Virus record (IMG/VR): IMGVR_UViG_3300028822_000274
Coordinates: 1 to 64,000 of that record
From: a virus
Reading direction: 5' to 3' (one strand)
DNA length: 64,000 nt
Positions 12,921 to 50,462 of this stretch are shown piece by piece. Below the pieces are notes generated by a model. The model saw only the letters and a program-made list of their open reading frames with translations. It was not told the DNA's origin and ran no database searches. The translations under genes and the position numbers were made by a program. Numbering within the stretch: position 1 is the first letter of the stretch; every line of letters begins with the position of its first letter.

Positions 12921-12950
12921 GGTGCACCATGGGTAAACCGGAGAACAAAG

Positions 12951-13184: not shown

Positions 13185-13210
13185 GGCACTAACTGAGTGG
13201 GGAGCTACTC

Positions 13211-13420
13211 ATGGTCAATGATTTTGAGCCCGTTGCAAGCGAATATGGAGCGGAAGAAATAAACCTGTCCGTATTCCAGGCCCATGGTCCTGGCTCATGT
13301 CCTCTATGTGGCAGCAATACGATACTGACATCAGGGGAGTACGGAAGGTTTTACGGCTGTGTCAATTTTCCAGATTGCTGCGGATCGAGGCAGGTGAAAA
13401 TCATATACATACTAAAATAG
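13211..13420 (+). CDS. Stand-alone topoisomerase-type C4 zinc ribbon
   Basis: GPGSCPLCGSNTILTSGEYGRFYGCVNFPDC. Confidence 0.7.
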   Translation: MVNDFEPVASEYGAEEINLSVFQAHGPGSCPLCGSNTILTSGEYGRFYGCVNFPDCCGSRQVKIIYILK

Positions 13421-13427
13421 GATCGTC

Positions 13428-13727
13428 ATGAAGATTAAGATTGAAAACAAACATCTTTATTCAATGGGCGAAAATGTTGTTGTTACGGCTATATCTTCTT
13501 TTGAGAATATAGATGGGAAAATGGAGGTTAAGACAAACAAATTGGCTGTCCCTAGAATCGGAAAGGTCACTGGTGTAAAAAGCGTTTGTGGTAATGAGTT
13601 CTGGACTGTTCGTTGGGGGATCATGAACAAAGAGGTCCTGGTTTCTCCAGAAAACATACGGGTTCCCCCTTACGGAAAAGCCGGTGATTTTCCTGTTTTA
13701 AACAGACAGAAAAGTTATTTTTGTTAG
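13428..13727 (+). CDS. Hypothetical protein, SH3/KOW-like
   Basis: Beta-rich ORF with AGGA RBS. Confidence 0.55.
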   Translation: MKIKIENKHLYSMGENVVVTAISSFENIDGKMEVKTNKLAVPRIGKVTGVKSVCGNEFWTVRWGIMNKEVLVSPENIRVPPYGKAGDFPVLNRQKSYFC

Positions 13728-13735
13728 TAGTTCTG

Positions 13736-13764
13736 TTGACAAAACCCACCGTATGGTATACGTT
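13736..13764 (+). promoter_or_regulatory. Early promoter, copy 4
   Basis: TTGACAAAAC...TGG-TATACGTT, intergenic. Confidence 0.7.
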
Positions 13765-13806
13765 ACTGCTTGGTAGTTGCTGACACCCAAAAAGAAAGGG
13801 TCTTCG

Positions 13807-14772: not shown

Positions 14773-14790
14773 CTGAAAGGACAAATAGAT

Positions 14791-15075
14791 ATGGCAAAGC
14801 CAGAGAAGGAAACTCGAAGTTTGGCCATGGCAGCGTATTGTCATCAATGTCTTGGGTATTATCAGGACGGAAAACACGACTGTGAGGCCGCAAGGTGTCC
14901 TCTCTACAAATGGATGCCGTACAGGAAGCTCGAACCCGACACGACCTGGTTAAAGTACAACCCGAGGTCGAAAGGACTGGTTACTTGGGAAGATAGCGAG
15001 CGGGAGCTTAGCGCTGAAGCAAAGCAGGCTGCAGCGGATAGAATCCGTGGCTTGCACAAGAAAAAGGAAGGATGA
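14791..15075 (+). CDS. Conserved phage zinc-binding protein
   Basis: AYCHQCLG...DC...CPLYKWMPY. Confidence 0.65.
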   Translation: MAKPEKETRSLAMAAYCHQCLGYYQDGKHDCEAARCPLYKWMPYRKLEPDTTWLKYNPRSKGLVTWEDSERELSAEAKQAAADRIRGLHKKKEG

Positions 15076-15076
15076 C

Positions 15077-15403
15077 ATGGATATTTTCTTCGGGCCGTCA
15101 GGAAGCGGAAAAACAACAGAACTTTTGAAACTTGCGCACCGATCTCCTTATATTATTGTAACGATGTCAAAACAGCGAGCCTATTTTTTATATAAGGAAT
15201 CACTCAGTTCTGATCTTTCTATTTATTATCCGATTACCTATACTGAACTTTTACATAATAGCGTCATTCATGAAGGGTCTAGGATCCAGGGATTTTTGTT
15301 TGATGATGTGGAACAGTTTTTACATCTAATCTCTAACGGAAAGGCTGTTCGCGCAATGACGTTTTCTGCGCCGGTAAAAGGCGAAGTTCACGGAGCGTCC
15401 TGA
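15077..15403 (+). CDS. Small P-loop NTPase
   Basis: Walker A GPSGSGKT and Walker B-like FLFDD. Confidence 0.65.
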   Translation: MDIFFGPSGSGKTTELLKLAHRSPYIIVTMSKQRAYFLYKESLSSDLSIYYPITYTELLHNSVIHEGSRIQGFLFDDVEQFLHLISNGKAVRAMTFSAPVKGEVHGAS

Positions 15404-15669
15404 TGTTGAGGTTTCGGGCAGTAGACAAGGGAAATATCTGCTATGGCGAAGATTCGGTTCAAGAAACGTGTACAAAAAAACGAGGTCACTTCTCAGTCGA
15501 AAGAAAAATCAGAGACGGTTCAGCAGTCTTTGGAGTGTGCCACGACGGCTGGTCAGAACACGAAGTCTGCAGAACGAGAAAAGAGGCAATCAATAGAGCA
15601 GAACAACTCAGAAAGCACTTCAGCTGGGGTAGAGATTTCATTTTCAGAGTTGTCCACATCACCGAATAA
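15403..15669 (+). CDS. Hypothetical protein
   Basis: TGATG-coupled ORF. Confidence 0.45.
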   Translation: MLRFRAVDKGNICYGEDSVQETCTKKRGHFSVERKIRDGSAVFGVCHDGWSEHEVCRTRKEAINRAEQLRKHFSWGRDFIFRVVHITE

Positions 15670-15676
15670 CCCACCG

Positions 15677-15850
15677 ATGTTCCGGTCACACCATGACGCG
15701 GCAAAGGAAGGGTGCCCGGCATGTGGGGCAGAACTCAACGCGAAATGCGTTATCCCAGCTCACCAGTACTGGACGATTTGTTGTTGGCGATGCCAAAAGA
15801 AGAAGCTTTATGATGTCAACTACCACATCAAAGGCACTAAAAAATCATGA
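15677..15850 (+). CDS. Small zinc-ribbon protein
   Basis: CPACG...CCWRC; start uncertain. Confidence 0.5.
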   Translation: MFRSHHDAAKEGCPACGAELNAKCVIPAHQYWTICCWRCQKKKLYDVNYHIKGTKKS

Positions 15851-16023
15851 ATAGTGAATTAAATCTCACGACCGACAATTTCATGTTGGTCTGCTCCAGG
15901 TGCGGCTCTTTTGAAGGCCCCCTTTATCTCATACCAGGTAGAAACGGACAGTTTTTATCTGGGTTCATTGTTTGCTGTGAGGGTTGTCTGGAAGTTGTAA
16001 TACCTAATAACAAGGATGAATGA
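15847..16023 (+). CDS. 58-aa zinc-finger protein (not in the ORF track)
   Basis: CSRCG...CCEGC; ATGA-coupled at both ends. Confidence 0.55.
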   Translation: MNSELNLTTDNFMLVCSRCGSFEGPLYLIPGRNGQFLSGFIVCCEGCLEVVIPNNKDE

Positions 16024-16226
16024 TGTTTCACTCTATGGATATTGATGGAAAATTCTTTGTGGAAATTATGTGCGATAAATGCTCTCACGCTGGCCCAAGA
16101 GTTCCGGCCAAAGGTTTCCTTGATCCAGAAGCAAGAAAAGAAGCAATCGAAAAAGCAAAAGAAAACGGTTTTTTGGACGAAGAGTGTTACGGCGGAAGGG
16201 CTTACTTCTGCGCAAACTGCAAATAG
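16020..16226 (+). CDS. Small zinc-finger protein
   Basis: CDKC...FCANCK. Confidence 0.6.
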   Translation: MMFHSMDIDGKFFVEIMCDKCSHAGPRVPAKGFLDPEARKEAIEKAKENGFLDEECYGGRAYFCANCK

Positions 16227-16235
16227 GAGAACGAC

Positions 16236-16454
16236 ATGGGAGACAATTACATCTTTACATTTGGCGTAGGGCATGAACTGGCAAAATATTACGTCGAGCT
16301 TTGTGGCGACATTTCCTCTACTCGGGAGGAAATGTTTCGTCTTTTCGGACCACACTGGGCCTTTCAATATGACAAGAAGAAAGGGGACGAGCTTGTGAAG
16401 GAATACAATTACATCCCTCTCAAAGTCGATTCTCCGGTGTCATTCCATCAGTAA
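16236..16454 (+). CDS. Conserved phage hypothetical protein
   Basis: FTFGVGH...YV...REEMFRLFGPHWAFQY pattern; AGGAG RBS. Confidence 0.6.
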   Translation: MGDNYIFTFGVGHELAKYYVELCGDISSTREEMFRLFGPHWAFQYDKKKGDELVKEYNYIPLKVDSPVSFHQ

Positions 16455-16464
16455 AGGCTTTGTC

Positions 16465-18099
16465 ATGAAGATAGAAAAAGCAAGAGTTGAAGAAGTACGC
16501 CTCTCTGTGCCTGAAGGATTCAAAACAGCAGCAGAAGCTATAGAGCATTACGGCAGGATTTGCTATCGCTCAGAAGACAAAATCACCGAAACTTCTGCGG
16601 ACAAATTTGTGGATCGCCTGTACAAGAGTGGGCACCACGCCATGCTCGAGTTCTGTGATGCGACCGTAATCTATTCCTGTGATAGGGGTATGTCTCACGA
16701 GCAGGTTCGTCACAGGCTGGCCTCCTTTGCCCAGGAATGTGTTTCAGGTTCGACGAAAGTCCACAAAAAATGGTCTGTGAAGCAACTATACGATAGAAGC
16801 CAAACAGCCATGGGTAGGGAGTACAACAGTAGGCTTTTATTAAGAAGCGTGGACTCTGTTGGGAATATAGTTCAGAACAAGATGAAGGATATATGGCTTG
16901 TGGGTAAACGGCCGGTATTTCGTTTAATGACGAAGCTTGGCTACAGTATAGACGTTACTTCAGAGCATAGGTTCTGCATGAAGGACGGCTCAGAGATAAG
17001 ACTGAGCGAACTGAATGTAGGAGATCGTGTCTTGGTGAACGGGAGACCGGCGGCAATAAAAATTCCACATGAAGACGTTGAGGCCATGTATTTGCAGGAA
17101 GCAATGAGTCCGAGCGAAATAGCTGATACACTGTGCGTTCCTTACAGGAGCGTATTAAATTGCCTGCATAAACAAGGGGTATTTCAAAGGCGTCTTAACG
17201 ACAAAAACAAAGAAAAATATACCAAAAACCACACGAACGATTCTTATGAGAAGATGCGTTGCTCTATAAAAGAGCAGTACAAAAACGGCAGAATGGCGTG
17301 GAATAAAGGTCTGTCAGAAGACGACCCTTCTGTGTTTATCCAGGCGGAATCTCTTCGAAAAAACCATTATGACAATCGTCCTCTAGAGGAAAATTCTAAT
17401 TGGAAAGGGGGTGTGGATTCTGGTGTTGCACGGCGACGCAAGGCTGAGGTGGATGCTTGTGAGCTATGTTCTTTCCAAGGTTTTCTTGAGGTTCACCACA
17501 TAGATAAAAACACGAAAAACAATACGCCAAAGAATCTGGTAAAGGTGTGCAGGAATTGTCATAAAAAACTTCATTTTGGTTGGCATATCGGAATGGTTGC
17601 ACATGAAGATGAGGTAATATCCATAACGCCACTAGGTTTTGAGGATGTGTTTGACATCGAGATGTGCTCCCCATATCACAATTTCGTTGGTAACGGGATT
17701 GTGACCCACAATAGCACGCGATACTGCTCGTACAACAAGTCAAAATTCGATGGGGAAATCACAGTCATCGAGCAACCCTCCATAGCCGCTGCTGAAGGCT
17801 CAAAAGGAGCTGTTGCCAAGGCTACCTATGAACAGGCAGCACTATACGCTGAGGAGGCGTACAAGAAGCTCCTGGAGTGCGGAATAAAGCCCCAGGAGGC
17901 GCGGGCGGTACTACCGATAGGTCTCAGGACACGTATTGCAGTTAAGGCGAATCTGAGGGAGTGGCTTACGATTTTCAGCCTTCGTTGCGATACCCCAGCA
18001 CATCCGATAATCCGCGAATGTTCAAAGGAGGTACTCCGTGTCTTACGAGAGCGAGTCCCGTCAGTCTTTTCGGACCAGGGGGAGAGGTTCATGCTTTGA
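16465..18099 (+). CDS. thyX: Flavin-dependent thymidylate synthase ThyX, intein-containing
   Basis: GRICY, SGHHAMLEF, SHEQVRHRLASFAQE|STRY, QEARAVLP, NLREW...LRC...AHP. Confidence 0.95.
   Translation: MKIEKARVEEVRLSVPEGFKTAAEAIEHYGRICYRSEDKITETSADKFVDRLYKSGHHAMLEFCDATVIYSCDRGMSHEQVRHRLASFAQECVSGSTKVHKKWSVKQLYDRSQTAMGREYNSRLLLRSVDSVGNIVQNKMKDIWLVGKRPVFRLMTKLGYSIDVTSEHRFCMKDGSEIRLSELNVGDRVLVNGRPAAIKIPHEDVEAMYLQEAMSPSEIADTLCVPYRSVLNCLHKQGVFQRRLNDKNKEKYTKNHTNDSYEKMRCSIKEQYKNGRMAWNKGLSEDDPSVFIQAESLRKNHYDNRPLEENSNWKGGVDSGVARRRKAEVDACELCSFQGFLEVHHIDKNTKNNTPKNLVKVCRNCHKKLHFGWHIGMVAHEDEVISITPLGFEDVFDIEMCSPYHNFVGNGIVTHNSTRYCSYNKSKFDGEITVIEQPSIAAAEGSKGAVAKATYEQAALYAEEAYKKLLECGIKPQEARAVLPIGLRTRIAVKANLREWLTIFSLRCDTPAHPIIRECSKEVLRVLRERVPSVFSDQGERFML
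16738..17712 (+). mobile_element. Intein (325 aa) with an HNH homing endonuclease
   Basis: Starts at Cys (CVSGST), block B VTSEHRF, ends VFDIEM...HNFVGNGIVTHN followed by Ser; internal CELC...EVHHID...NTPKNLVKVCRNCH HNH motif. Confidence 0.93.
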
Positions 18100-27785: not shown

Positions 27786-30242
27786 ATGATGCCAATTTAT
27801 ACGTTTCCAGATGTGTACGCGGAGGAGGTAACCTCTCTTGAGGGTCCTATCCAAGCCGCTGCAGTAGGCAAAGGTGGTCTGCAGGCAGTGACTCAGAAGG
27901 GTCCTCCTGGAATCCCGATCAGGACTCGGACCTTCGACGCGTGGAAAGAGATTTTTGGTGGTTATGAGGCTGCGGCTCGTGGCGATGCGGCTTACGAGGC
28001 CAAGGCGTTTTTCGCTGAGGGTGGCTTCGAGTTGATCACCGTTCGCCAGGTGGCCTACACCGACATCGACGACAAGACGACCTTTGTTGGCGGTGTTGCA
28101 TCGAGGACCATCGATACTGACGGTGTTGCTGCGACTGCTGCTACGAAAACAGGGGCTGTCGGTACGTACGCCATGTCTGCAGGTGATACCGTTGTAGTAG
28201 ACGTCGATGACGCCGGTGACGCTACGGCAACGTTTGACGCTGCTGCCGGATATGTCGAAGACACGACTGGTTATCCTGTCGCAGATCAAGACGGTCTAAC
28301 CATCACCCTCAAAATTGATAATGGTGCTACCCAGACAGTGACGTTCTCCGGAGCAACCACAACTGTTGCTGGCATCATCGATCAAATCAATGCCCAGATT
28401 TACGGTGGTTACGCAACGGAAAATGGCGGGCAGCTCAGGATCGTCAGTGACAAGCTCGGAACTGGGAGTTCTGTGGAAATCACTGGTGGTACCCACGGTT
28501 TGACGTTTGGTGCTGCCACTGCCGGTACCGGTGATGTTGTTGACATTCGTGCAGTCACTGCCACTGAGGTTAAAACTGTCATCGAGGCCGACACCACTGC
28601 GACTGTGACGGTGAATGCAGATGGATCATTTACGATTTCTTCCCCGACGACTGGCGCTGCCTCTGAGCTGGACTTTACCGGCGGTACTGGCCTCACTGCT
28701 CTCGGCCTTTCGGTCGAAACCATCGTCGGAACTGCAGCAGGTGCGACGTTCAACACGTTGACACTTCAATGCGGCTACCGCAGCTACACTGCTCCAGGAG
28801 TTTATGGTAATCTGTTGAAGGCGAAGATCACCCAGAATCCGAGGCATGCGTCTGCAGGAGCTGGATCCGACATCGCCGCTGACATTACCGCTTCGGATAC
28901 GTCCGTCCAGGTTGTTTCGGCACAAGGGATCAATGCTGGCTCAGTGATTAAGGTCACTGATGGTACGAACACCGAGTACAAAGAGGTGACCGGTGTGAGA
29001 ACCACTGTTGTGGCCGGAGTCGTATCATTCTTCGTCGACATCGATGGCACGTTCTCCAACCCCTATGTGACTGGTGTTACCACGCTTCAAACCCAGGAGT
29101 TCGACATCCAGGTGTACGAGGGCGATGTTTTGGTCGAGACATGGCCTCAGTTGTCGATGCTCGATACCGCTGACAACTACGTCGAAACGGTCATCAACGA
29201 TGAGAATTTCGGTTCGAAGTACATCGTAGCGACCGACCTTGACGCTGCTGCCGGACTCGGTGCTGATCTTCCTGCCAGTGATTCTGCTGCTACAGCTCTT
29301 TCTGGTGGATCCTCTGAGATCGTTGGCTTGGCCGACACTCACTGGATTGGATCCTCGACAGGCAAGACAGGTCTGTATGCGTGGGATGAGATCAACGAGT
29401 TCATGCCGTTCTGTACGCCTGGTAACAACAACGCTGCTCTCGTCCATGCTGCTGCGGCTTATGCCAAGGACAGAATCTGGATGGAGTACCTGACCTACGT
29501 TGACACTGGCATGGCCGGTGCTGACGCTGTGGCGTATCGTGAGTCCATCCTCGGTGTTGATTCGAGTTACGTGTCTCTGTACGCCGGTGGCGAGAAGGTC
29601 TTCGACCCTGCTGGTTCCGGGTCCGCTCCACGGCGTCTCATCTCTGGCCTGGGTGCCATGATGGGTATCCGTGCCCGCGTTGATTCTTTGTCCGATTCTG
29701 GACCGTGGGAAGCCCCCGCTGGCCAGGGCGACTTCGGTGTCCTCCGCTCTGCCCTCGACGTTGCTACCGAGTACAGCAACACCGACCACGGGCTGATGAA
29801 CGACGCTCACATCAACGTCATCAGGAAGTTCTCAAACACGAGTGCTCCGGTTGTTTGGGGTACCAGAACTCTGGACGCTTCTGTGCCGCAGAAGTTCCGG
29901 TACATTCCAGTACGCAGGTTCTTCCAGTTTGTGGAGAAATCGATTGTCGACTCCACTCGTTGGGCTGTGTTCCGGAACAACAACGACAACCTGTGGGTGC
30001 GGCTGAAAGATCGTATCAGTGATTTCCTTCTGGGTCTGTTGGGTGACGGGGCTTTCCCGACCACCGAGGCGGCAACCGCGTACTTCGTCAAGATCGGATT
30101 CGCTGACGGAACCATGGACAGCGACGACGTTGACAGCGGCAAGGTCATCGGACAAATCGCACTCGCTCCGAACAAGCCGGGCGAATTCATCATTTTCCGT
30201 TTCAGCCAATACACTGCTGGAGCGGATGTAACTGAGGCATAA
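27786..30242 (+). CDS. Contractile tail sheath protein
   Basis: YTFPDVYAEE, GPWEAPAG, INVIRKF...VWGTRTL, RYIPVRRFFQFVEKSI...WAVFRNN, IALAPNKPGEFIIFRFSQ. Confidence 0.95.
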   Translation: MMPIYTFPDVYAEEVTSLEGPIQAAAVGKGGLQAVTQKGPPGIPIRTRTFDAWKEIFGGYEAAARGDAAYEAKAFFAEGGFELITVRQVAYTDIDDKTTFVGGVASRTIDTDGVAATAATKTGAVGTYAMSAGDTVVVDVDDAGDATATFDAAAGYVEDTTGYPVADQDGLTITLKIDNGATQTVTFSGATTTVAGIIDQINAQIYGGYATENGGQLRIVSDKLGTGSSVEITGGTHGLTFGAATAGTGDVVDIRAVTATEVKTVIEADTTATVTVNADGSFTISSPTTGAASELDFTGGTGLTALGLSVETIVGTAAGATFNTLTLQCGYRSYTAPGVYGNLLKAKITQNPRHASAGAGSDIAADITASDTSVQVVSAQGINAGSVIKVTDGTNTEYKEVTGVRTTVVAGVVSFFVDIDGTFSNPYVTGVTTLQTQEFDIQVYEGDVLVETWPQLSMLDTADNYVETVINDENFGSKYIVATDLDAAAGLGADLPASDSAATALSGGSSEIVGLADTHWIGSSTGKTGLYAWDEINEFMPFCTPGNNNAALVHAAAAYAKDRIWMEYLTYVDTGMAGADAVAYRESILGVDSSYVSLYAGGEKVFDPAGSGSAPRRLISGLGAMMGIRARVDSLSDSGPWEAPAGQGDFGVLRSALDVATEYSNTDHGLMNDAHINVIRKFSNTSAPVVWGTRTLDASVPQKFRYIPVRRFFQFVEKSIVDSTRWAVFRNNNDNLWVRLKDRISDFLLGLLGDGAFPTTEAATAYFVKIGFADGTMDSDDVDSGKVIGQIALAPNKPGEFIIFRFSQYTAGADVTEA

Positions 30243-39004: not shown

Positions 39005-39912
39005 ATGACGCGTTAGGCGGATTCAGTACAGTAGTAAGCACGTTATCTTCTGCGCTGGATACTCTTGGGGACATAATTGATGTAATATCTGCTTTTGCTG
39101 GCGGAATTGATGACATAAATGCAGCGATAATAGAAGCGGTCCAGGATTTGATTGTGAGTATCACTCAACAATTGACACAGACCGGCGTTTTTCAGCTTTT
39201 TCATACATCTCCTTCTGTTTCTTACACTCTCCCACCAAGACAGTGGCTTGCCGATGTTGCTGCGTCTCTCACCGATAGGATGGACGAGAGAAGGCCTATA
39301 TTGGTTGATGAAAGCGCTTATGTCGGGGCTGTTGTGGTATTGGCTACATCAGAAAATTTAAAAGATTTATTTACTGATTATTACAACCTCTCACAGTTGT
39401 TCCAGAGAAGGATTGCTAGACTTTCCCAAATAAATAATTGGCCTGTTGTCGGCCAGGAGTTTACTGTTGAGGAAGGTGTGGGTAGGGAACCAAATTGGAA
39501 TTCAAAAAAGGTTGTCGATATAATACCGAGGCTCGGCGAAATAACAGAAAAGATGCTCGGGTTTGCTAATTCGATCTCAGGGCCAGCGTCCTCGTCTGAT
39601 CTTTATGGAAACTTTGCTGACATGTTGTCTGCAAAAGCTTCCTATCTCACAAACTTTGTTTCTGACATAGAAGATATACTCAATGCAATCTCTATCGTGT
39701 TGAATTTTGATGGGGCTTACGTTCTTCCAATTTACGGTCAAGGAGATGCAGACTGGCTAAAAACACAGTTATTAAATTCTAGTGGTGGCCCACTTGACGC
39801 TGAAGATGCTAATTACTCTATGGGAGCAATGCTTTTATCGACAGGAGCAACGACAACACCTGCGGATACGTTGTTTTCGTTGTTTGGTTTGGCCACGGAG
39901 GTGACGCCATGA
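38953..39912 (+). CDS. Hypothetical baseplate-region protein
   Basis: GAGGAG RBS; 319-aa helical protein. Confidence 0.7.
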   Translation: MPNWISFDPSDLYPQEIDDALGGFSTVVSTLSSALDTLGDIIDVISAFAGGIDDINAAIIEAVQDLIVSITQQLTQTGVFQLFHTSPSVSYTLPPRQWLADVAASLTDRMDERRPILVDESAYVGAVVVLATSENLKDLFTDYYNLSQLFQRRIARLSQINNWPVVGQEFTVEEGVGREPNWNSKKVVDIIPRLGEITEKMLGFANSISGPASSSDLYGNFADMLSAKASYLTNFVSDIEDILNAISIVLNFDGAYVLPIYGQGDADWLKTQLLNSSGGPLDAEDANYSMGAMLLSTGATTTPADTLFSLFGLATEVTP

Positions 39913-40286
39913 CAATTTATCCGAGCGGGATAAAATTTCCATTCACTTTTGTTAGTGCGGGTGGAGTAGGAAAAGCAGATAATGGAGACAAAGTTCTTGC
40001 TAATTTAAAAGCACTAATTTTGTCTAAAATAAATGAACGTCTCATAAGAAAGAGTGTTGGGACGATAGGTTATTCACGTGTTTTCAAATCAGCTCATGCG
40101 ACGACATTAGAACCTGTAAAACATTTGATTAGGCAGGCAATAGTGAAGTTTGAGCCAAGAGCTGTTGGGGTAACAATCGACTTTAGGTCACAAGATGATA
40201 GAGCTGGCTCTAAGGTCATAGCAGATGTGGCTTTCATTTTTAAAAACACAGGGGAACCTGTTAAGATGAGTTTGGAACTGGATTAG
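39909..40286 (+). CDS. Baseplate wedge / sheath initiator (GPW/gp25 family)
   Basis: GIKFPF...NERL...IRQAIVKFEPR. Confidence 0.85.
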   Translation: MTIYPSGIKFPFTFVSAGGVGKADNGDKVLANLKALILSKINERLIRKSVGTIGYSRVFKSAHATTLEPVKHLIRQAIVKFEPRAVGVTIDFRSQDDRAGSKVIADVAFIFKNTGEPVKMSLELD

Positions 40287-40294
40287 GAGGACAC

Positions 40295-42058
40295 ATGCCA
40301 GTCGTTACGACTCTCTCCGGAGAAACAATTTCAGTTGATTTGGAGACTCGAGATTTTGAAGGTTTTCGATCTGACGTCTTGGATTCAGGTGGCCTCGCTG
40401 ATACGTATGCTCCTGACTGGACAGACAGGTCTGAGCTTGACCTCGGTGTCGCTCTTGTTGAGTCTTTTGCTTTCATGGCTGATAACCTGGCGTATTACCA
40501 GGACCGCTGGGCGAATGAAGCTCTTTTCCCATCTGCTGTTCAGAGAAGATCGATTATCGAGCACTGCAAGCTCATAGGATATGAGTTGCGCCCTGCGGTG
40601 AGTGCGAGAGTAGAGCTGACGTTCATCGCAAGCGGAGCTGGCACTGTTCCAGCCGGAACGAAAGTTCTCGTAGATACTTCCGATGGTTCAAGCCCAGCCA
40701 CGTTTGAGCTTGTCTCTGATTTCGTCTCAGCAGGTGCCGGTACTACGACTGGTGTCATTGCCTACGAAGGAAGCTCTGTCGATGAGGTCATCGGTTCGAG
40801 TGATGGTTCTCCGGATCAGTCGTTCGAGCTGTCGAGCACTCCACTCGCTTTGAATCCAGATGGATCTTCGAGCCTGGAAGTGACTGTTACAGTCGGAGCT
40901 GTCGACCAGGTATGGACCGAGGTTGACAATTTTTTGGAATCAGATTTTACAAATCAGCATTTCCGCACAGAAATAGACGAGAATGACACTGTCACTGTGA
41001 TTTTTGGTGATGGTGTCAACGGTGCGATCCCGTCGAGCGGGGTGGACAACATATCAGCAAATTATCGTGTTGGCGGCGGTATTTCTGGAAACCAGATTGC
41101 CCCTGATAAGCTGACTCGACTTGTTGGCTCATTTGCTTTTGTTACGTCAGTGACGAACCCTGCGGCTCCTACAGGTGGCATCGATAGGGAAACGATAGCG
41201 CAGGCAAAGGTAAACGCTCCTTTGAGCCTTAAAGCCATGAATAGGGCTGTGACGCACGACGATTACAAAGCTATCGCTCTCCAGGTACCTGGTGTGCTTC
41301 ATGCGTTTGCTTATCGTGGTGCCGGTAGTTTTGAGGAACGTGTTGTGATCGCAGGTGGCGGGTCGGATCCTGTTCCTGCTGGAACATGGGATCCTTACAC
41401 AGAGACTGGCACCGACTTGATAGGGGCTGTCGGCGAGTATCTCAGCGCAAGAAAAACGACACCTGTAGTGCTCTACGTTGATCCTGTTCGCGTTGTAGAT
41501 GTGCGGCTGATTGTGAACACATATTTGTACAGCAACACGAGACAGTCAGATGCACTGAGGGTTATCGACGATGCGATAACTGATTTGTTTGCTACGGAAA
41601 ACCAAGTCCTCGGGCAGCAGGTTCCTCTTTCCAGGGTTCATGAAGTAATAGAAGGGCTCACTGGGATTGATTACGTTAATGTCCTTCAGATGCAGCGTGT
41701 ACCGAATCCCAGAAAATTGCCGTTTGGTAGCTCCACTGATGTTTCGATTGGTGATTTTATCGTCGGTCCAGATACATTAGATGAAACGTATACTCTGTCA
41801 TTTCTGACTTCCACAACATTTGAGGTTGTAGGCGCTGCAACAGGGTTTCAAGGAACCGGGATTGTCGGTTCGGCTTTTACTACTTCAGATGGTACTTTAA
41901 CCTTTACTGTTACAGCTGGCGCTATAGCTCCTTCAAACACAGACAGGTTTGAAATAGTTACTGGCCCATACGTTGGGAACATAAATCCAGCCGACGACGA
42001 GATGGTCAGTCTTTATAACGATACTTTCCAGAGTGTAGTGTATGGCGGTATAGTCTAA
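40295..42058 (+). CDS. Baseplate J-like protein (Afp11/Pvc11-type)
   Basis: RDFE...PDWTDRSELDLGVALVE.FA...YYQD..ANE, FGDGVNGAIP, YRVGGG..GN, RAVTHDDY. Confidence 0.9.
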   Translation: MPVVTTLSGETISVDLETRDFEGFRSDVLDSGGLADTYAPDWTDRSELDLGVALVESFAFMADNLAYYQDRWANEALFPSAVQRRSIIEHCKLIGYELRPAVSARVELTFIASGAGTVPAGTKVLVDTSDGSSPATFELVSDFVSAGAGTTTGVIAYEGSSVDEVIGSSDGSPDQSFELSSTPLALNPDGSSSLEVTVTVGAVDQVWTEVDNFLESDFTNQHFRTEIDENDTVTVIFGDGVNGAIPSSGVDNISANYRVGGGISGNQIAPDKLTRLVGSFAFVTSVTNPAAPTGGIDRETIAQAKVNAPLSLKAMNRAVTHDDYKAIALQVPGVLHAFAYRGAGSFEERVVIAGGGSDPVPAGTWDPYTETGTDLIGAVGEYLSARKTTPVVLYVDPVRVVDVRLIVNTYLYSNTRQSDALRVIDDAITDLFATENQVLGQQVPLSRVHEVIEGLTGIDYVNVLQMQRVPNPRKLPFGSSTDVSIGDFIVGPDTLDETYTLSFLTSTTFEVVGAATGFQGTGIVGSAFTTSDGTLTFTVTAGAIAPSNTDRFEIVTGPYVGNINPADDEMVSLYNDTFQSVVYGGIV

Positions 42059-42932: not shown

Positions 42933-45900
42933 ATGAGCGTTTTCAGCAATTTACGCGGTGTCCTGTCAACTGCTTTTTCTCTCGGCAAAACAGATAAGAT
43001 CGAGATAGAAAACAGTTCTGGAGACTTTGTTTTAAAAACAGCAGGCTCAGAACGTGCTCGTCTAAATTCCAGTGGTGTGACAGTTACTGGTGATTCGGAT
43101 TTGTCAGCAGGGTCTGTATATAAAATAAATGGCACACAACTTGACGGTGGCGATGTAGGGCTCGGAAACGTCACCAATGACGCACAGCTAAAAAGAGCAG
43201 CAGGAGACATAAATACTTTCACGGAAAAAGGTACTCCTGTTGCTGCTGATCTCCTTCTCGTAGAAGATAGTGCTGACAGCAACAACAAAAAGAAAGTACA
43301 GATAGACAATCTTCCTGCGAGCGGATCAAAACCTATCGTTCAGACTCTGAAAGTCGGACAGGCTGGATCGGATGTAGATTACAACTCGATCAAAGACGCA
43401 GTTGATGCAGCTGTTGCAGGAGGAGCCTCTGGATCTGCCCCGTGGAGAATCGACGTGTACCCTGGAGCATACGTCGAAGACCCGATGACGGTTCCTCTTG
43501 GGGTTAATATCATATCAACAGATCAACGGGTAGACACTGTATTCGTAGTAGCTTCTGATCCCACAAATGACCTATTTACTCTTGCCGGTGGGTACATTTG
43601 TGGCCTGAATATGTCTGGAGTCACCTCTACTGGGAAGGCTCTCGTAACAGCTTCTACGGCAGGGTCCCTGAACGTCCTTCACGGAGTTTCTTTCAACAAC
43701 TGCTATTATGGAATCCACGTATCAGGCGGGGCTACGATGATTTGCACCAACGTATCCTGTTTGATCGCAAGCGCTGGCGTATCAGTTGACACAGGGATTC
43801 GTGTTACTGGGACAAGCTCTTTCTTGCTTATGTCTGGTTGTTTTTTCAGTGTACCATCAGCAGTTCTTCCTGCATATGCTTCGAATCCGATTGAAACTGC
43901 AGTTTGTATAGAAGATGCAGCTGATGCTTTTATATTAGGTGGGGTTTTTCAGGTTTCCCCTAAAAATTCTGACGCGAATGCTATTCTTGTTGATTCTGCG
44001 GCTACTTGTTTTGTGTCGAGCGGCGTTTTTGCAGGTTGCGGCAATGCAATCCATATAGGGTCGTCTGGTTCGAATACTTCTGTTGTTTCCCAGGGCAGTT
44101 CTTTCAAAGACAATTCTCTGAACACTCTCATTGATAGCAGCACAGGTACTATTTTCTGTAACGAGACTGTTGATCTTGTCCAGGATTCCCTTGTTTCAGG
44201 AGCAAAAAAACTGGGTGTAGCCCAGATTCGAGATGACGAACGAGTAGACCTCTTAGGTGATGTTCAGTACAAATTCGTAGAAACGGATAGACGAGCTGGG
44301 CTCGGTGTTTTCTTCAATGAGATGGGTGCTTCCGGTGTGTCCTCAGGTGGCATCGTGTCCATAAATTCAGGCCTCGATGTAGACGTTTCCGCTGGTACAG
44401 GATGGGTTAGGCGCAGGTCGACCTACAACGATTTGGCGTCTGTTGTCTGGAACGACGTCATAGCGCTGACGTTGACGGCAAGCAACACAAACTACGTTTA
44501 TTACAACGAGACTTCTGGTGCTGTTACAGCTTCTGTTACTCCTCCTGGGTATTCAGATTCAATTTTGTTGGCTACTGTTGTCACCGATGGATCTGGGGTT
44601 CGGTACATTCATCAAACAAGGAACTATGTAGACTCTCCTGCTGAGCAGCTGAGGGATTATCTCCTGGCTACAAGAAAGATTGCTTTGAATAGTGGTCTGG
44701 CTGTAGACGCCGGGACGACTTCGCTGAAGTTCGACGTTACGGTTGGTTCCTACTACCTGGGTCTTGACCTTATCTCGTTCGCCGGTGCTGCTGATGCCAC
44801 GTTCTCATATTTTTACGGGACAAATGGGGCGAACGAGGTCTCGTCTCAAACTGAGATCGACGACGAATACTACGACAACGCAGGTACACTGACACTCCTT
44901 ACGGCTGGGTATTTCAAGGCCGATACAGTTGTCTTGACCAGCGATGGCAGAATCAGCGTCATCTATGGCACCGAGGAATTCGCGACTCAGGAAGAAGCAG
45001 AGTCGGCGGCTGTAGCGAATACCCCTACTTTCATCGAGCACTCAGCTATTCAGTTGGCAAATATCGTCGTCGAAGACGGTGCTGGCATAGCATCTTTCGT
45101 CGACATCAGGCCTCAGCCTGGCGCTATTACAGGTGGTGGTGGAGCTGCTGGAGTCAGCAACCACGGTCTTCTCTCTGGTCTTGCTGATGACGACCATGTT
45201 CAATATCTGCTGTCTTCTGGTTCGAGGGCCATGTCAGGTTCTCTTGATATGGGCGGGAACAACATCACGAACGTTGCGAACGTAGATGGTGTCGATGTCT
45301 CAAGCCACGCTTCACGTCATGATCCTGGAGGAGCTGACTCACTCACAACTGGTACTCCCGTAACAACTCTGGTGGATGGCGCAGCGGCAGAAGGGTCTGC
45401 TGCGAGTTATGCCAGGAGCGATCACCAACACGGAATAGCGAGTGGCGTTCCCTCTTCTGTGGGAACCTCCAATTCTGCTGGTTCAGCGAGCACTGTTGCT
45501 GCCAGTGATCACGTTCATGACCATGGCGCTCAAACAGATGGGACTTTACATGCTGCAGCCACAACTGGGGTCAATGGCTTTATGTCTGCAGCAGACAAAA
45601 CAAAGCTTGATAATGCCACGGCAACACCAACGGCAGACAGGCTTGTCATTGCGGACGGATTCGGCACAGTTGATGATTGGATAACGAGTGGTGATTTAAC
45701 AGAAGCAGTCTCGTCTGTACTCACCATAAATAATGGTTCTGGGGCAGTTCTTGGCTCAGGCACGTCTATCCAAATTGCACAGGCTGGTGCAGGTCAAAGT
45801 GGCTATTTAACTTCTGTTGATTGGAATACATTTAATGATAAAATTGACGGTGGCGTTAATGTTGGCGCATTAGGTGTAGGTGTTTTCAAACAAAAAAATG

Positions 45901-47024
45901 GAACCGATCTAGAATTTTTGAACATAAATTCTGGATCGAATAAAATCACAGTTGTTGCTGATTTAAGTAACGATGAAATAGATATAGATGTAGATGAGTC
46001 TAATGTCGTCCATCAAAATCTTTCTGGGGCAGGGACAAATGATCATTCAGCCATAGACGCTCATATTGGAAACTCTAACATACACTTTACTGAAAGTTCT
46101 ATCGACCACACTAACATATCTAATATTGGGGCGAATACACACGCTCAGATTGATACACATATTGCAGACAGCACCATTCATTTCACTGAAGGGAATATTG
46201 ATCATACTGCTATTCAGAACATAGGGACAAACAGCCACGTTCAGATCGATGCTCATATTGCGAGCACAACGAACCCACACTCTGTTGACAAGACTGATGT
46301 GTCCCTCGGGAACGTCACCAACGATTCTCAGCTGAAAAGGGCGGCAAATGATTTTACAACTTTCACTGAGAAGACTTCACTCGCAGACGATGATGTAATT
46401 CTCATTGAGGACAGCGCTGACACTTACAGCAAAAAGCGGCTGAAAGCTGTAAACCTCCCGAGTGGTTCCGGTGGTGGAGGGCCTTCTACTCCAGGGACAA
46501 CGACTGATAATGCCATTGTTCGATGGGACGGGACAGACGGTTCTGCTATTCAGAACAGCGGTACAACTGTCGATGACAACGACGTCATCACTCTCAATAG
46601 CGATGGTGGTGCAGTCAAGGTTTCGACTCCAGCTAGTGATTTAAATGCAAACGGAATCATAATTTCAGGTACAGTAGACACTAACGCAACTGGTGTCGGA
46701 GCGCTGCTTTTCCTGAATACAGATGGGAACTGGGACGAAGCTCAGGCAAACTCTGCTACTACAGTTGGTCAGCTCGGCTTGGCCATGGAATCTGGTACAG
46801 GGACGAAGAAAATCCTTCTGTATGGTATTTTCAGGAAGGATGCCTGGGGTTGGTCTGTCGGACACCAAAACGGCGCTCTTTACGTGAGCGGGGCGACTGC
46901 CGGAGCCATGACGCAAACCGCCCCTAGCACTGATGGTTACCAGATTCAGAAATGCGGATACGCGATAAGCGCAGATGCGATTATGTTTGCGCCGTCGCCT
47001 GACATCGCGGAGTACGTAGCATGA
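42933..47024 (+). CDS. Long tail fibre/spike protein (1363 aa)
   Basis: Two copies of DVxLGNVTND; YNSIKDAV...PGAY beta-helix entry; His-rich repeats; DNAIVRWDG motif. Confidence 0.8.
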   Translation: MSVFSNLRGVLSTAFSLGKTDKIEIENSSGDFVLKTAGSERARLNSSGVTVTGDSDLSAGSVYKINGTQLDGGDVGLGNVTNDAQLKRAAGDINTFTEKGTPVAADLLLVEDSADSNNKKKVQIDNLPASGSKPIVQTLKVGQAGSDVDYNSIKDAVDAAVAGGASGSAPWRIDVYPGAYVEDPMTVPLGVNIISTDQRVDTVFVVASDPTNDLFTLAGGYICGLNMSGVTSTGKALVTASTAGSLNVLHGVSFNNCYYGIHVSGGATMICTNVSCLIASAGVSVDTGIRVTGTSSFLLMSGCFFSVPSAVLPAYASNPIETAVCIEDAADAFILGGVFQVSPKNSDANAILVDSAATCFVSSGVFAGCGNAIHIGSSGSNTSVVSQGSSFKDNSLNTLIDSSTGTIFCNETVDLVQDSLVSGAKKLGVAQIRDDERVDLLGDVQYKFVETDRRAGLGVFFNEMGASGVSSGGIVSINSGLDVDVSAGTGWVRRRSTYNDLASVVWNDVIALTLTASNTNYVYYNETSGAVTASVTPPGYSDSILLATVVTDGSGVRYIHQTRNYVDSPAEQLRDYLLATRKIALNSGLAVDAGTTSLKFDVTVGSYYLGLDLISFAGAADATFSYFYGTNGANEVSSQTEIDDEYYDNAGTLTLLTAGYFKADTVVLTSDGRISVIYGTEEFATQEEAESAAVANTPTFIEHSAIQLANIVVEDGAGIASFVDIRPQPGAITGGGGAAGVSNHGLLSGLADDDHVQYLLSSGSRAMSGSLDMGGNNITNVANVDGVDVSSHASRHDPGGADSLTTGTPVTTLVDGAAAEGSAASYARSDHQHGIASGVPSSVGTSNSAGSASTVAASDHVHDHGAQTDGTLHAAATTGVNGFMSAADKTKLDNATATPTADRLVIADGFGTVDDWITSGDLTEAVSSVLTINNGSGAVLGSGTSIQIAQAGAGQSGYLTSVDWNTFNDKIDGGVNVGALGVGVFKQKNGTDLEFLNINSGSNKITVVADLSNDEIDIDVDESNVVHQNLSGAGTNDHSAIDAHIGNSNIHFTESSIDHTNISNIGANTHAQIDTHIADSTIHFTEGNIDHTAIQNIGTNSHVQIDAHIASTTNPHSVDKTDVSLGNVTNDSQLKRAANDFTTFTEKTSLADDDVILIEDSADTYSKKRLKAVNLPSGSGGGGPSTPGTTTDNAIVRWDGTDGSAIQNSGTTVDDNDVITLNSDGGAVKVSTPASDLNANGIIISGTVDTNATGVGALLFLNTDGNWDEAQANSATTVGQLGLAMESGTGTKKILLYGIFRKDAWGWSVGHQNGALYVSGATAGAMTQTAPSTDGYQIQKCGYAISADAIMFAPSPDIAEYVA

Positions 47025-47530
47025 CGACTGGATGTATTTGGGGATATTGGGATAGATGGCACGAAGGCATGACTGCAAGCATGACTGAGGCCATGAGAGT
47101 ATGTGATGGCGATGACCTTCATGTTGTTGTTATTGAAGGATCCACTGAAATAAATGAAAAGGTAGAAGTAAAAAGAAGTTACCTTGTGCACAGAAGAAAC
47201 TATGTGAAAGATAAGGTCAAAGACATAGCAAAAGATACAGGGTACAAACCAAAAATAATTTACCATATCTATGAAACTCTAACTGAAGCAATAACAGATT
47301 GTGGCTCTTATCCATTTGATATTTTGTTTGTTGTTGAACATGATAAAAATAATTGTGTGCCATTTAACGCAAATATAGCAGCAGCACAGTTTTCAAAAAC
47401 TTCTTCCGGGCGCAAGGAAGCTAAATTGCATGTTGTTAAATCTGTATTTGAAGAAGGCACTGAAATAACATGCTCTTCAACAAGGTTAAGAAAAAGGGAG
47501 AAGCTAAGAAATAGGGCTAAAAATAAATGA
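47021..47530 (+). CDS. HIGH-superfamily nucleotidyltransferase, archaeal/eukaryotic CoaD (PPAT)-like, divergent
   Basis: GYWDRWHEG resembles GTFDxLHxGH; C-terminal LHVVKSV...ITCSSTRLR resembles ISSTxIR; 169 aa. Confidence 0.6.
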   Translation: MTTGCIWGYWDRWHEGMTASMTEAMRVCDGDDLHVVVIEGSTEINEKVEVKRSYLVHRRNYVKDKVKDIAKDTGYKPKIIYHIYETLTEAITDCGSYPFDILFVVEHDKNNCVPFNANIAAAQFSKTSSGRKEAKLHVVKSVFEEGTEITCSSTRLRKREKLRNRAKNK

Positions 47531-48165
47531 GCACTTCTATTACATTATACACTGCTGCGGAAAACGACGCGCAGGACCATGGTTCCTCTATAAGTAACGC
47601 TTTGCCCCTAACTGTAGGGTCTATTAGTGGTGGTTTTTCTTCGACCTCCTATAATGTAGCTTATAGACATAAACCTAATATATCTCAATCTGGTGAGCGT
47701 GTTGTGGTTGACAATTTTACGACAACAGTTACTGCTTCAAGCTCAAACGGAGGTGGGGCATTTAATGGTGTTGTTGGTATCCATGATGGTGATTGTCCTG
47801 ACTTGTCAACTAATAATATAGCTAAAAATTATAGTGATATAGGAAATAGTGTTTCTGTATCTTTCCCTTCAAGCAAATCTGCTGGGGACACTCTTACCCC
47901 ATCTTCGCTGAAAGATGCTGCGCAGGCTTGGTTTGATAGATCAGGTTATGCGCAAGATGATTATATTGGGATTTGGTGGGACGAGTCAGATGCGGCAAAA
48001 GGTGAGTATTGGGATTTGAGGGATGGTGATTATGAACCCCAAACTGATAGGCCAAGAATCGATCTTGAGTACCACAAAGCAAGCAAAGCCAAGTGGAATA
48101 AAACAACAAATATAAACTTAAAGATTAATGGTGTTCCATCTGATAATCTGGGCGAGGTTCTATAG
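47527..48165 (+). CDS. Beta-rich structural protein, paralog A
   Basis: Colinear with 48165..48794. Confidence 0.7.
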   Translation: MSTSITLYTAAENDAQDHGSSISNALPLTVGSISGGFSSTSYNVAYRHKPNISQSGERVVVDNFTTTVTASSSNGGGAFNGVVGIHDGDCPDLSTNNIAKNYSDIGNSVSVSFPSSKSAGDTLTPSSLKDAAQAWFDRSGYAQDDYIGIWWDESDAAKGEYWDLRDGDYEPQTDRPRIDLEYHKASKAKWNKTTNINLKINGVPSDNLGEVL

Positions 48166-48794
48166 TGGGTACGACTACTACATGGTATACGCAAGCTTTG
48201 TCTGATGCACAAGAATGTACCTCTTCTGTTATTTCTAATACTACAAACCTAACTGTCGGTTACCCAAGTAGCACTGACAAAAGGGTCGCCTATAGAGTTC
48301 AACCTAGCATTTCTCAGGACGGTGAAAGGGTAATCGTTAGCACAGCCACTTCTTCTATAAAATGCTCTACTGGAAATGGCGACGGTGCGTTTATCTCCCC
48401 TATAGGGGTTCATGACGGCAGCGCTCCAGATTTGACTTCCGATAATTTGGCTTTTAATTATACGGAAATAGAACCAAACATAGATTTTTCTGTTCCTTCG
48501 ACAAGAAGCGCAGGGGATGTCTACACCACTGGGAGCCTAAAAGATCATGTCCAGGCTTGGTTTAATCGTTCCGGATATAGCTCATCAGATTATTTGGGCG
48601 TTATTTGGGAGGGCGGCGATTCTGCGAAGAACGAATATATAGATACTTATCAGGGTAATACTTCTGCAACGGGGGATAGGTGTAGGGTCGCGTGTACTTA
48701 CCATAAAGCCAGTAAGGCAAAATGGAATGGTACAGCAAATTCTAAGTTGAAACTTAATGGTGTGGGTTCTGATAATCTGATTGAGCTGGTGTAA
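48165..48794 (+). CDS. Beta-rich structural protein, paralog B
   Basis: Shares VAYR..P.ISQ.GERV.V, HDG..PDL, QAWF.RSGY...DY.G and YHKASKAKWN with paralog A. Confidence 0.7.
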   Translation: MGTTTTWYTQALSDAQECTSSVISNTTNLTVGYPSSTDKRVAYRVQPSISQDGERVIVSTATSSIKCSTGNGDGAFISPIGVHDGSAPDLTSDNLAFNYTEIEPNIDFSVPSTRSAGDVYTTGSLKDHVQAWFNRSGYSSSDYLGVIWEGGDSAKNEYIDTYQGNTSATGDRCRVACTYHKASKAKWNGTANSKLKLNGVGSDNLIELV

Positions 48795-48817
48795 CTCAAA
48801 CGGAAGTTGAGATTATA

Positions 48818-49393
48818 ATGTCGAACGGAACCCACGAGAAGTACAACACACCGACAAGAGGGAATTCTTCATCTTTTCTTGAGAAGTATTTGGATAAAAA
48901 GGCTGACAGGGACTGGATTGAAGCAAAACTGGAGTCTGCTGCCATGCAAGTGAACACTCTGAGAGCTGATATGCACGACACGAAGAAGATCGCAAATTCT
49001 GCAAAAAGGAAATCTGAAATGCCTCATGAATGCTCACAAAAAGATATGATTGAATACACTACACAAACAATAGCCAGCTGGACAAAATGGTGGCGTGGCA
49101 TATTGGTCAGTGCGTTGGGTTTCTTGATTATAGTTGGTGGCTCGTGGCTTTATCAATACTTCACTTTAAACAACGATGTGGCAACAACAAAAACAGCTAT
49201 AACTGAGCTCAAAGGCTCTGTAAGAAGCATAGAGGAATCACAGAAAGAGCTTAGTGACATAGTTAGGGAGTCTATTATTAATGAAGACAAAAAGAACCAG
49301 AAAAATATTTCTGAGATTAGGTCTGCATTAAGAGATGTGCTAAAAGAATTTAGAGTGGCAAATGAAAATCGCAGTGGTAGGAGAGGTAGCTGA
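48818..49393 (+). CDS. Single-pass membrane coiled-coil protein
   Basis: Transmembrane segment WWRGILVSALGFLIIVGGSWLY flanked by coiled coils. Confidence 0.7.
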   Translation: MSNGTHEKYNTPTRGNSSSFLEKYLDKKADRDWIEAKLESAAMQVNTLRADMHDTKKIANSAKRKSEMPHECSQKDMIEYTTQTIASWTKWWRGILVSALGFLIIVGGSWLYQYFTLNNDVATTKTAITELKGSVRSIEESQKELSDIVRESIINEDKKNQKNISEIRSALRDVLKEFRVANENRSGRRGS

Positions 49394-49971
49394 TGCCGAG
49401 AAAAGTATTACTAGGTCCTATAGTAGACCAATTTCCTATCTACGAGCTAGACGGGATTCACAAGCATTCTGGTGGTTCTGCGTATACAGTTACGATCTGG
49501 AAGGATGGTGTTGAGCAGGCTATTGACTATACGATTACTGAAATCGGTACTTCCGGCGAGTATACATTTGAGTTCACGCCAGATGACGTCGGTTATTGGG
49601 TGGCCGAAGTCATTATCGCTTACAACACCGAGGTTTACGCGGGCGAGTATGATGTTTACGAGACGGATCCTGCTCAGGCATTGTTCAATGCTGCTTACGA
49701 TTCAGGAACGCTATATCTCGAAGCGTGGCTTGATAGGCAGGGGATTTCGGTTCCTGCCGCTGATCTGGTGTCTTGCCAGGTTGATGTGTACGAGCAGGAC
49801 GGTTCACTACTTGTCTCGTCGACATCTGCTGCCCCAAGACTGAACGGAAGATTTAGCATGACGGAATCCGTGGTTTTGTTAGACGATAAGCCGTATAATG
49901 TATCTGTGAGCGTGACTGATGCATTGGGTACAATCACAACGTACCACGCGTTTACTACGGTGCAAGGATGA
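49393..49971 (+). CDS. Ig-like beta-sandwich structural protein
   Basis: EIGTSGEYTFEFTP...GYW. Confidence 0.65.
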   Translation: MPRKVLLGPIVDQFPIYELDGIHKHSGGSAYTVTIWKDGVEQAIDYTITEIGTSGEYTFEFTPDDVGYWVAEVIIAYNTEVYAGEYDVYETDPAQALFNAAYDSGTLYLEAWLDRQGISVPAADLVSCQVDVYEQDGSLLVSSTSAAPRLNGRFSMTESVVLLDDKPYNVSVSVTDALGTITTYHAFTTVQG

Positions 49972-50114: not shown

Positions 50115-50462
50115 ATGGGACCTGTTGCAGCTACCTTTGCGATAAAACAAAATGCCAGGCGACCATATTTGAGGATGCTCGTCAAAGACCAAGATGGTAA
50201 TCCGTTTGACTTTTCTGGCGCATCTGGCGTTACTTTTTTGATGTACGACGGTGAAGGAAACGAGATTGTATCCGCTCCGGCTTCTATTGAGGCTCCTCCT
50301 TCTTCCGGGGTCCTGAGGTATGCTTGGGCTGATGGAGATACGGAAGAAGCTGGTGAGTTTCGAGCGGAATTTGATGTCTCTTACGGAGCTGATGACGTTA
50401 TGACAGTTCCGGTTAAAGGGAACATCCTTATTAGGATTTTTGGAGGTGTGAACGATGCCTAG
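50115..50462 (+). CDS. BppU N-terminal-like Ig domain protein
   Basis: IKQNARRP.L...G.LRYAWADGDT..AGEFRAEFDV...TVP. Confidence 0.7.
   Translation: MGPVAATFAIKQNARRPYLRMLVKDQDGNPFDFSGASGVTFLMYDGEGNEIVSAPASIEAPPSSGVLRYAWADGDTEEAGEFRAEFDVSYGADDVMTVPVKGNILIRIFGGVNDA

Follow-up and report, generated by a model that had tools for sequence, protein, structure and literature searches.

The protein P0001 is encoded by the open reading frame (ORF) 47021-47530 of a 64,000-nucleotide stretch of phage DNA, hereafter the window, which is the initial 64 kb of the 103,713-bp IMG/VR virus record IMGVR_UViG_3300028822_000274, rated complete by CheckV. Our analysis places P0001 as a phage-specific, fast-evolving offshoot of the archaeal/eukaryotic-type branch of phosphopantetheine adenylyltransferase (PPAT), within the HIGH nucleotidyltransferase superfamily. 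Its gene directly follows a long tail-fibre gene and forms, with a downstream gene for a protein of about 210 residues, an obligate two-gene module whose second member is duplicated in the window phage. The explanation that we favour, and hold tentatively, is that P0001 would be a catalytically crippled, PPAT-derived binder of a nucleotide or phospho-ligand that serves this predicted beta-sandwich partner at the fibre tip.

The placement of P0001 comes from the profile of its family and from its predicted fold, since the protein searched on its own has no match in PHROGs, among PDB sequences or, at E ≤ 1, in Pfam. Searched against the PDB, the family profile has as its top match 3do8, the archaeal-type PPAT of Archaeoglobus fulgidus (E 2.7e-4), and aligns its positions 8-156 with residues 7-140 of 3do8 so that each motif faces its counterpart; after 3do8 it matches only NadR-NMNAT, TagD and CCT. 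Of the 14 family members, 10 are matched by NF001985, the model for archaeal PPAT, over its full length (best E 6.5e-12), and the canonical members cover model positions 3-145 of 157. These matches score 43-46 bits (best 45.8) against a curated cut-off of 104, P0001 itself has no match to NF001985 at E ≤ 1, and by curated thresholds P0001 is not a PPAT. The more general models behave similarly: PF01467 matches three of 12 family members (best E 2.3e-5) and finds no match in a search of the whole phage genome, P0010 scores 27.9 bits against TIGR00125 (cut-off 27.7), and PHROGs give weak matches to only three of the 14 members and none to the window protein.

An AlphaFold (AF2) model built on 14 sequences reaches a predicted local distance difference test score (pLDDT) of 87.9 and a predicted template modelling score (pTM) of 0.81, and is Rossmann-like, its parallel sheet having five strands, with the strand and helix order beta-alpha-beta-alpha-beta-alpha-beta...beta-alpha. 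By VIA its closest structural match is the Fom1 cytidylyltransferase 5x3d (Z 13.4, root-mean-square deviation 2.5, 123 residues aligned), followed by 3do8 (Z 12.6), 3glv (12.1), the PPAT 4nah (12.0) and TagD (11.4), with universal stress proteins (USPs) at about 10; Foldseek returns 3do8 as its first match (E 6.9e-6). The structural neighbours of P0001 in BFVD are viral cytidylyltransferase-like proteins, and the ESM Atlas model of P0001 lies nearest to the archaeal PPAT family (TM 0.70/0.78) and also close to the PPAT domain of eukaryotic CoA synthase. A first-pass annotation of the window, made by reading the sequence alone, had recognised the motif order of an archaeal-type PPAT in this ORF; it was right about homology and fold, with 3do8 heading both the profile and the Foldseek results, and the Rossmann HIGH fold that it had expected is the one found (Z 12-13.4).

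The family is very rare: of 5.8 billion clusters at 90% identity, it accounts for about a dozen. Two relatives of P0001 were found at 64% identity among those 5.8 billion clusters, and an exhaustive hidden Markov model (HMM) search of 1.84 billion proteins returned ten representatives of the family. Fused forms of 332-2000 residues were sought and none was found, which is weak evidence. Neither tblastn with P0001, P0011 and P0014 nor blastn with the module gave a match among 50,697 isolate phage records, scanning P0006, P0007 and alignment A1 against viral and metagenome contigs gave none, and P0009 and alignment A3 gave none against the GTDB representative genomes, which thus offered no prophage or host clue.

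Conservation within the family is concentrated in the motifs of the nucleotide site. Every motif quoted in the first-pass annotation is found in the P0001 translation, namely GYWDRWHEGM (residues 8-17), LHVVVI (33-38), RRNYV (58-62), FDILFV (99-104) and CSSTRLR (151-157). We assessed conservation on an alignment of 14 family sequences, 12 of which have the N-terminus (P0006 and P0007 are apparently truncated there). Residues G8, D11, H14 and G16 are invariant in all 12 sequences with an N-terminus, R58 is invariant in all 14 and R157 is likewise invariant, while conservation reaches at least 80% at W10, F99 and D100 and at least 85% at S152, K158 and R159; the best-conserved columns of the family fall for the most part in the three canonical motifs of the nucleotide site. 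The motifs of P0001 are not a product of chance, because they coincide with the most conserved family columns and pair one to one with the motifs of 3do8 in the profile alignment.

The exception within this conserved site is the last residue of the HxGH motif. Among the 12 sequences, position 17 is Met in five, His in four, Gln in two and Thr in one, and it varies by clade: His marks one well-supported clade (P0010, P0011, P0012 and L006), Met the five-sequence clade of the window protein, Thr P0005, and Gln P0008 and P0009. The final His of HxGH is absent from eight of the 12 members. The replacement of the second His of the motif by Met, reported in the first-pass annotation, is confirmed as H-E-G-M at residues 14-17, and Met17 is a real, inherited state: the five sequences that have it make up a single clade. 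Erosion also affects the SST motif, which reads SAT in P0005 and P0009 and CDT in P0008. In characterised homologues these positions matter greatly: activity of Helicobacter pylori PPAT was undetectable in the H18A, S128A, S129A and R133A variants (PMC12784347), and in the FAD synthetase of Corynebacterium ammoniagenes the replacement of H28, and especially of H31, abolishes adenylyl transfer (PMC3509593). P0001 thus retains a recognisable nucleotide site without a residue on which the canonical mechanism depends.

The constant companion of P0001 is the predicted beta-sandwich protein of about 210 residues encoded downstream, not the fibre as such. The nucleotidyltransferase-like (NT-like) gene adjoins a partner gene in all five phages whose loci could be read, that is, at every locus found through either protein, and when the partner family was searched in IMG/VR it was recovered from four phages, of which two were represented by near-duplicate records, with the NT-like gene immediately upstream in each. 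The 195-kb phage contig L002 illustrates the arrangement: P0011 lies there after a collagen-like tail-fibre gene and before a gene for a 214-residue protein that is 32-38% identical to both P0013 and P0014, the two partner copies of the window. A database search with the partner profile returned 18 clusters. Homologues of the NT-like protein and of the partner occur on contigs of equal size (5024, 8463, 41877, 51062, 93603 and 197215 bp), and one pair carries the adjacent NCBI locus tags GY854_02350 and GY854_02355; the context of homologues P0002-P0010 was deduced solely from these equal contig sizes and this one adjacent tag pair. On this evidence the two genes lie on one contig in at least five further phages beyond the five readable ones. 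The distance matrices of the NT-like and partner families, compared over 10 pairs, are correlated (Mantel r 0.44, p 0.005); the partner evolves more slowly, its mean identity being 45% vs 30% for the NT-like protein. The phages that carry this cassette share only 23-30% identity in the NT-like protein, yet keep it in the same position and with the same partner.

The partner proteins are acidic (isoelectric point 4.6 for P0013 and 4.2-5.0 across the family), and neither P0013 nor P0014 has a signal peptide or a membrane segment. The structural neighbours of the ESM Atlas model of P0014 (pTM 0.78) are domains within large secreted or surface proteins of multidomain architecture, and on these the beta-sandwich prediction is based; a CBM96-type cluster stands among the feature matches of P0014. 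For the partner family, Pfam (E ≤ 10) and a profile search of the PDB returned nothing credible, only chance antibody matches.

Within the window the two-gene module is joined without gaps to the fibre gene. The 169-residue ORF is present as the first-pass annotation described it, with its ATG overlapping the stop TGA of the 1363-residue fibre ORF as ATGA, and the coupling to the next gene is a second ATGA, in which the TGA of the P0001 gene overlaps the ATG of the first partner gene. The GTG start of the second partner gene shares one base with the TAG of the first, and the four genes from 42933 to 48794 form a gapless chain; a GGAG stands 8 nt 5' of the P0001 start codon. Through these overlaps P0001 is coupled in translation to the late tail-fibre operon. 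Promoters and terminators scanned across 42-53 kb occurred at the level of shuffled sequence, and no internal signals were found. The G+C content of third codon positions (GC3) is 27% in the NT-like gene and 30-36% in the partner genes, against 50% in the C-terminal domain of the fibre and 47% in the window, with the boundary at the junction between the fibre and NT-like genes. The NT-like gene and its partners are, in this respect, compositionally foreign within the window. The second fibre gene, farther downstream, has a GC3 of 31% vs 47% for the window, and the low GC3 of the NT-like and partner genes (47050-48800) together with that of the second fibre gene suggests a recent exchange of receptor-binding modules.

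What the fibres ahead of the module have in common is their tip. The 1363-residue fibre has no Pfam, PHROG or PDB sequence match of its own, and its C-terminal domain has none in Pfam or PHROG; at all five readable loci, the gene upstream of the NT-like gene ends in this domain (residues ~1196-1363 of the window fibre). Identity to the C-termini of the upstream genes in L002, L003, L004 and L006 is 41-62% by pairwise BLAST and 43-76% over the 133-residue alignment A5, and in L002 the domain is shared with collagen-like proteins that PHROG labels 'tail fiber'. The shafts are wholly different, ranging over the 1363-residue protein of the window, the collagen-like proteins of L002, a 1092-residue protein in L004 and a 188-residue mini-fibre in L003. 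The slot directly 3' of the fibre gene is occupied in the same way in L002, L003, L004 and L006, and an ATGA or TAATG start/stop overlap is found in the window, L003 and L006. The domain itself is far more widespread than the module. It occurs at 54 IMG/VR loci (L008-L061), at the ends of very different fibre genes, and only four known phages among them carry the pair downstream, while the ~50 others lack it and have highly diverse genes in its place. For fibres that end in this tip the pair is an optional addition, and we reject P0001 as an obligatory chaperone of the C-terminal domain because about 50 other phage loci have the domain without the gene. Of the link to the fibre drawn in the first-pass annotation, what stands is that four further phages, all very divergent, have the gene in the same place, although the constant partner is the 210-residue protein; the fibre chaperone that it also proposed, if meant as obligatory for the C-terminal domain, falls with those ~50 fibres.

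The window fibre has further features of its own. The same segment of ~50 residues (GNVTND.QLKRAA...EDSAD...NLP) lies near both ends of the protein, at residues ~77-128 and ~1123-1175, and residues ~1010-1100 hold a run of repeats containing His-x-His (IDAHI, IHFTE, IDTHI), which are similar to the metal-binding repeats found in T4 gp37 and P2 gpH. The 188-residue fibre of the closest relative (L003:4931-5497) consists of the N-terminal ~110 and C-terminal ~170 residues of the window fibre, with the shaft absent.

The reading we favour follows the distribution of conservation across P0001 and its neighbours. Because the residues of the nucleotide site are the best conserved of the family, a function at that site is probably under selection, and the selected function would be binding at the old nucleotide site of P0001. 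Canonical catalysis would be dispensable in the family, because the His on which PPAT and FAD synthetase depend has been replaced by Met in P0001 and by Thr or Gln in sisters with the same arrangement; lineages that have H, M, T or Q at position 17 all share one gene order. P0001 would then work on its beta-sandwich partner, or together with it, during maturation, loading or attachment at the fibre tip, in a role other than the production of dephospho-CoA for metabolism. A bolder idea, to which we assign a rather low probability, is that a fold from the CoA pathway was recruited to serve a new class of accessory proteins at the fibre tip, either as a pseudoenzyme whose old nucleotide pocket serves for loading or docking these acidic partners on the fibre, or for marking them covalently with a nucleotide-linked group. 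If true, this would introduce a nucleotide-dependent step into tail-fibre maturation, and to our knowledge no such step is known for any phage.

Several considerations weigh against a binding role of this kind. The gene is missing behind about 50 fibres that share the C-terminal domain and is hence not needed for that domain to fold, and we know of no fibre chaperone with the fold of P0001. Four family members keep a perfect HxGH together with the SSS motif, which a purely non-catalytic role leaves unexplained. Some active class I enzymes tolerate a residue other than His at this position (the 'TIGN' of TrpRS), so a family member with Met, Gln or Thr in place of His is not necessarily inactive. 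The partner, finally, may be a beta-sandwich, and both this assignment and its carbohydrate-binding label are leads from the ESM Atlas alone.

The same conservation can be read in favour of catalysis, and the best-surviving alternative, unlikely in our view, is that P0001 is an active nucleotidyltransferase. It would transfer AMP or CMP onto a phosphorylated acceptor, and the activated group would decorate the partner or the fibre tip late in infection; a CDP-alcohol, an ADP-sugar or a dephospho-CoA-like compound are candidate products. Strong conservation of G8, D11, H14, G16, R58, SST and R157 and the full HxGH of four members are what such an enzyme would display, and in L002 genes for GT2-TPR, sulfotransferase and GT4 follow the cassette at a distance of 2-5 kb. 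Against this, eight of the 12 members with an N-terminus have lost the last His, a residue required in PPAT and FAD synthetase, no conserved transferase stands beside the pair, where only the 210-residue protein is constant, and Pfam and PHROG scans of the fibre module of the window found no glycosyltransferase.

The foreign composition of the NT-like gene and its partners (GC3 27-36% vs 47%) would also suit a moron island, in which the pair and the membrane protein of 48818-49393 act on the envelope or receptor of the infected cell, as a host-surface or superinfection-exclusion function, and not on the virion. Receptor-blocking genes do sit beside receptor-binding-protein genes (T5 llp), and a possibly membrane-spanning protein follows the pair in both the window and L004. 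We nevertheless consider this quite improbable: a signal peptide or membrane segment is absent from both P0013 and P0014, conservation of the membrane protein does not extend to L002, L003 or L006, and start/stop overlaps bind the pair to the fibre gene.

Still less probable is an auxiliary metabolic or counter-defence enzyme, either a true CoA PPAT or an NMNAT-like enzyme of NAD+ regeneration, that would sit in the fibre operon by accident. PPAT, NMNAT and FAD synthetase are indeed the closest homologues, and the phage encodes a CoaB-like DFP domain at 8308-9930. An accidental location, however, is at odds with the recurrence of the same position and partner across phages only 23-30% identical in the NT-like protein; the best score of 45.8 bits falls far below the PPAT cut-off of 104, the catalytic His is lost, and the DFP gene is not co-distributed with the cassette, being present in one of five other cassette phages.

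Hardly credible, by comparison, is a USP-like nucleotide sensor that is not derived from a nucleotidyltransferase: a first, poor AlphaFold model from three sequences (pLDDT 54) matched USPs best (Z 9.6-11.1), whereas the 14-sequence model that supersedes it ranks cytidylyltransferases first (Z 12-13.4, USPs at about 10), all sequence-profile matches are nucleotidyltransferases, and no USP family appears among the Pfam and NCBIfam results for the family.

Set beside known systems, the P0001 family resembles archaeal/eukaryotic-type PPATs (3do8 of A. fulgidus, NF001985/PRK00777, the PPAT domain of CoA synthase) in its size of ~150-170 residues, in its Rossmann HIGH fold and in the order of the motifs GxFDxxHxGH, conserved Arg, FDxxxV and ISSTRI(K/R)(R/K)xE. 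It differs from them in being only 14-16% identical, in scoring below half of the cut-off, in the Met that replaces the last His of HxGH in P0001, and in its location within the tail-fibre operon of a phage, where a predicted beta-sandwich protein always accompanies it. Small cytidylyltransferases (Fom1 5x3d, TagD/GCT 1coz and 2b7l, and Thermoplasma 3glv, with structural Z of 13.4, 11.4 and 12.1) are also close, and the N-terminal profile matches to them include the HxGH helix; GCT has an RTEGISTT-type C-terminal motif, that of the phage family is PPAT-patterned, and P0001 is without the catalytic His. The phage cytidyltransferase/NMNAT families PHROG 395, 3462 and 7878 belong to the same superfamily and are phage-encoded like P0001, but they match only three of 14 members, weakly, and no fibre or beta-sandwich pairing is described for them.

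By position, the module recalls lambda Tfa, Mu U, P2 G and T4/T2 gp38, which occupy the slot immediately 3' of a fibre gene, are coupled to it in translation, are compositionally distinct and are exchanged as a cassette. The likeness of P0001 to Tfa and gp38 is by position only, since P0001 has a HUP/Rossmann fold and no Pfam or PHROG tail-fibre-assembly match, and its fibre domain is widespread without it. The 362-residue cytidylyltransferase gp140 of cyanophage S-SZBM1, which was detected in purified virions (PMC9146016), is a loose precedent for P0001.

P0001 lies within a known superfamily, and what is undescribed is its tightly conserved gene partnership. Our search of the literature found nothing on a nucleotidyltransferase-fold accessory of tail fibres, nor any description of this family paired with a sugar-binding-like neighbour. 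The accessory genes that follow fibre genes determine the folding of fibres and their binding targets, and the known ones (Tfa, gp38 and the like) belong to few families. If our reading is correct, a metabolic nucleotidyltransferase fold together with a predicted carbohydrate-binding-like partner would constitute a new kind of fibre accessory module, and the family would offer a natural HxGH to HxG(M/T/Q) series for studying the change from enzyme to binding protein. Because the family is rare and absent from the 50,697 records of cultured phages searched, its impact would be on annotation and on hypotheses of fibre biology, not on a long-standing problem.

Table 1. Features of the window in and around the fibre, NT-like and partner genes; residue numbers refer to P0001.
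Feature	Position	Strand	Evidence or remarks
PPAT-like HIGH-fold protein P0001, 169 residues	47021..47530	+	ORF, overlaps, family, profile, fold
Motif 1 GYWDRWHEGM, HxGH with last His replaced by Met (M17)	47042..47071	+	Aligns with GTFEPLHEGH of 3do8
RRNYV, conserved R58, start of second helix	47192..47206	+	Aligns with Arg of 3do8 and TagD 1coz
CSSTRLRKR, ISSTxIR-type, start of last helix	47471..47497	+	Aligns with ISSTRIKRGE of 3do8
Partner copy 1, P0013, 212 residues, acidic, predicted beta-sandwich	47527..48165	+	32-51% identical to downstream gene in L002, L003, L004 and L006; HMM matches
Partner copy 2, P0014, 209 residues, paralogue of P0013	48165..48794	+	52% identical to P0013
Long tail-fibre gene, 1363 residues	42933..47024	+	After gp25-like, Baseplate_J and 270-residue genes; His-x-His segments; shared C-terminal domain
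Fibre C-terminal domain, ~133 residues, widespread in phage fibres	46623..47021	+	BLAST and A5 alignment
191-residue basic protein, central hydrophobic segment, coiled-coil-like flanks	48818..49393	+	Weak Rz-like spanin and phrog_19043 matches
192-residue acidic protein, possibly Ig-like	49393..49971	+	Weak Big_13 match; 36% identical to gene after pair in L003
BppU_N adaptor-like gene	50115..50462	+	PF10651, E 1.1e-5
Second fibre-like gene, 803 residues	50455..52866	+	Matches parts of L004 and L002 fibres
Sheath	27786-30242		Contractile-tail gene of the window
gp25-like gene	39909-40286		Upstream of long fibre gene
Baseplate_J gene	40295-42058		Upstream of long fibre gene
270-residue phrog_4042/4302 gene	Upstream of long fibre gene		

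The gene neighbourhood of the window is that of a contractile-tail phage (Table 1), and the P0001 gene is placed between its two fibre genes. The basic protein encoded after the partner genes, at 48818-49393, has a counterpart at the same place in L004 only, at 28% identity, and is not a constant part of the cassette.

At some distance from this region, the window encodes at 8308-9930 (+) a 540-residue protein whose N-terminal ~180 residues hold the DFP domain (CoaB-like C-terminal domain, PF04127; E 8.7e-18). A pathway shared by P0001 and this CoaB-like gene was considered and is unsupported, given its presence in a single other cassette phage of the five. L002 has a counterpart of the 540-residue protein, 38% identical over residues 1-244. 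Behind the fibre block of L002, at 11896-16497, lie Spherulin4-like, GT2-TPR glycosyltransferase, sulfotransferase and GT4 glycosyltransferase genes, which may form a virion or surface glycan-tailoring set.

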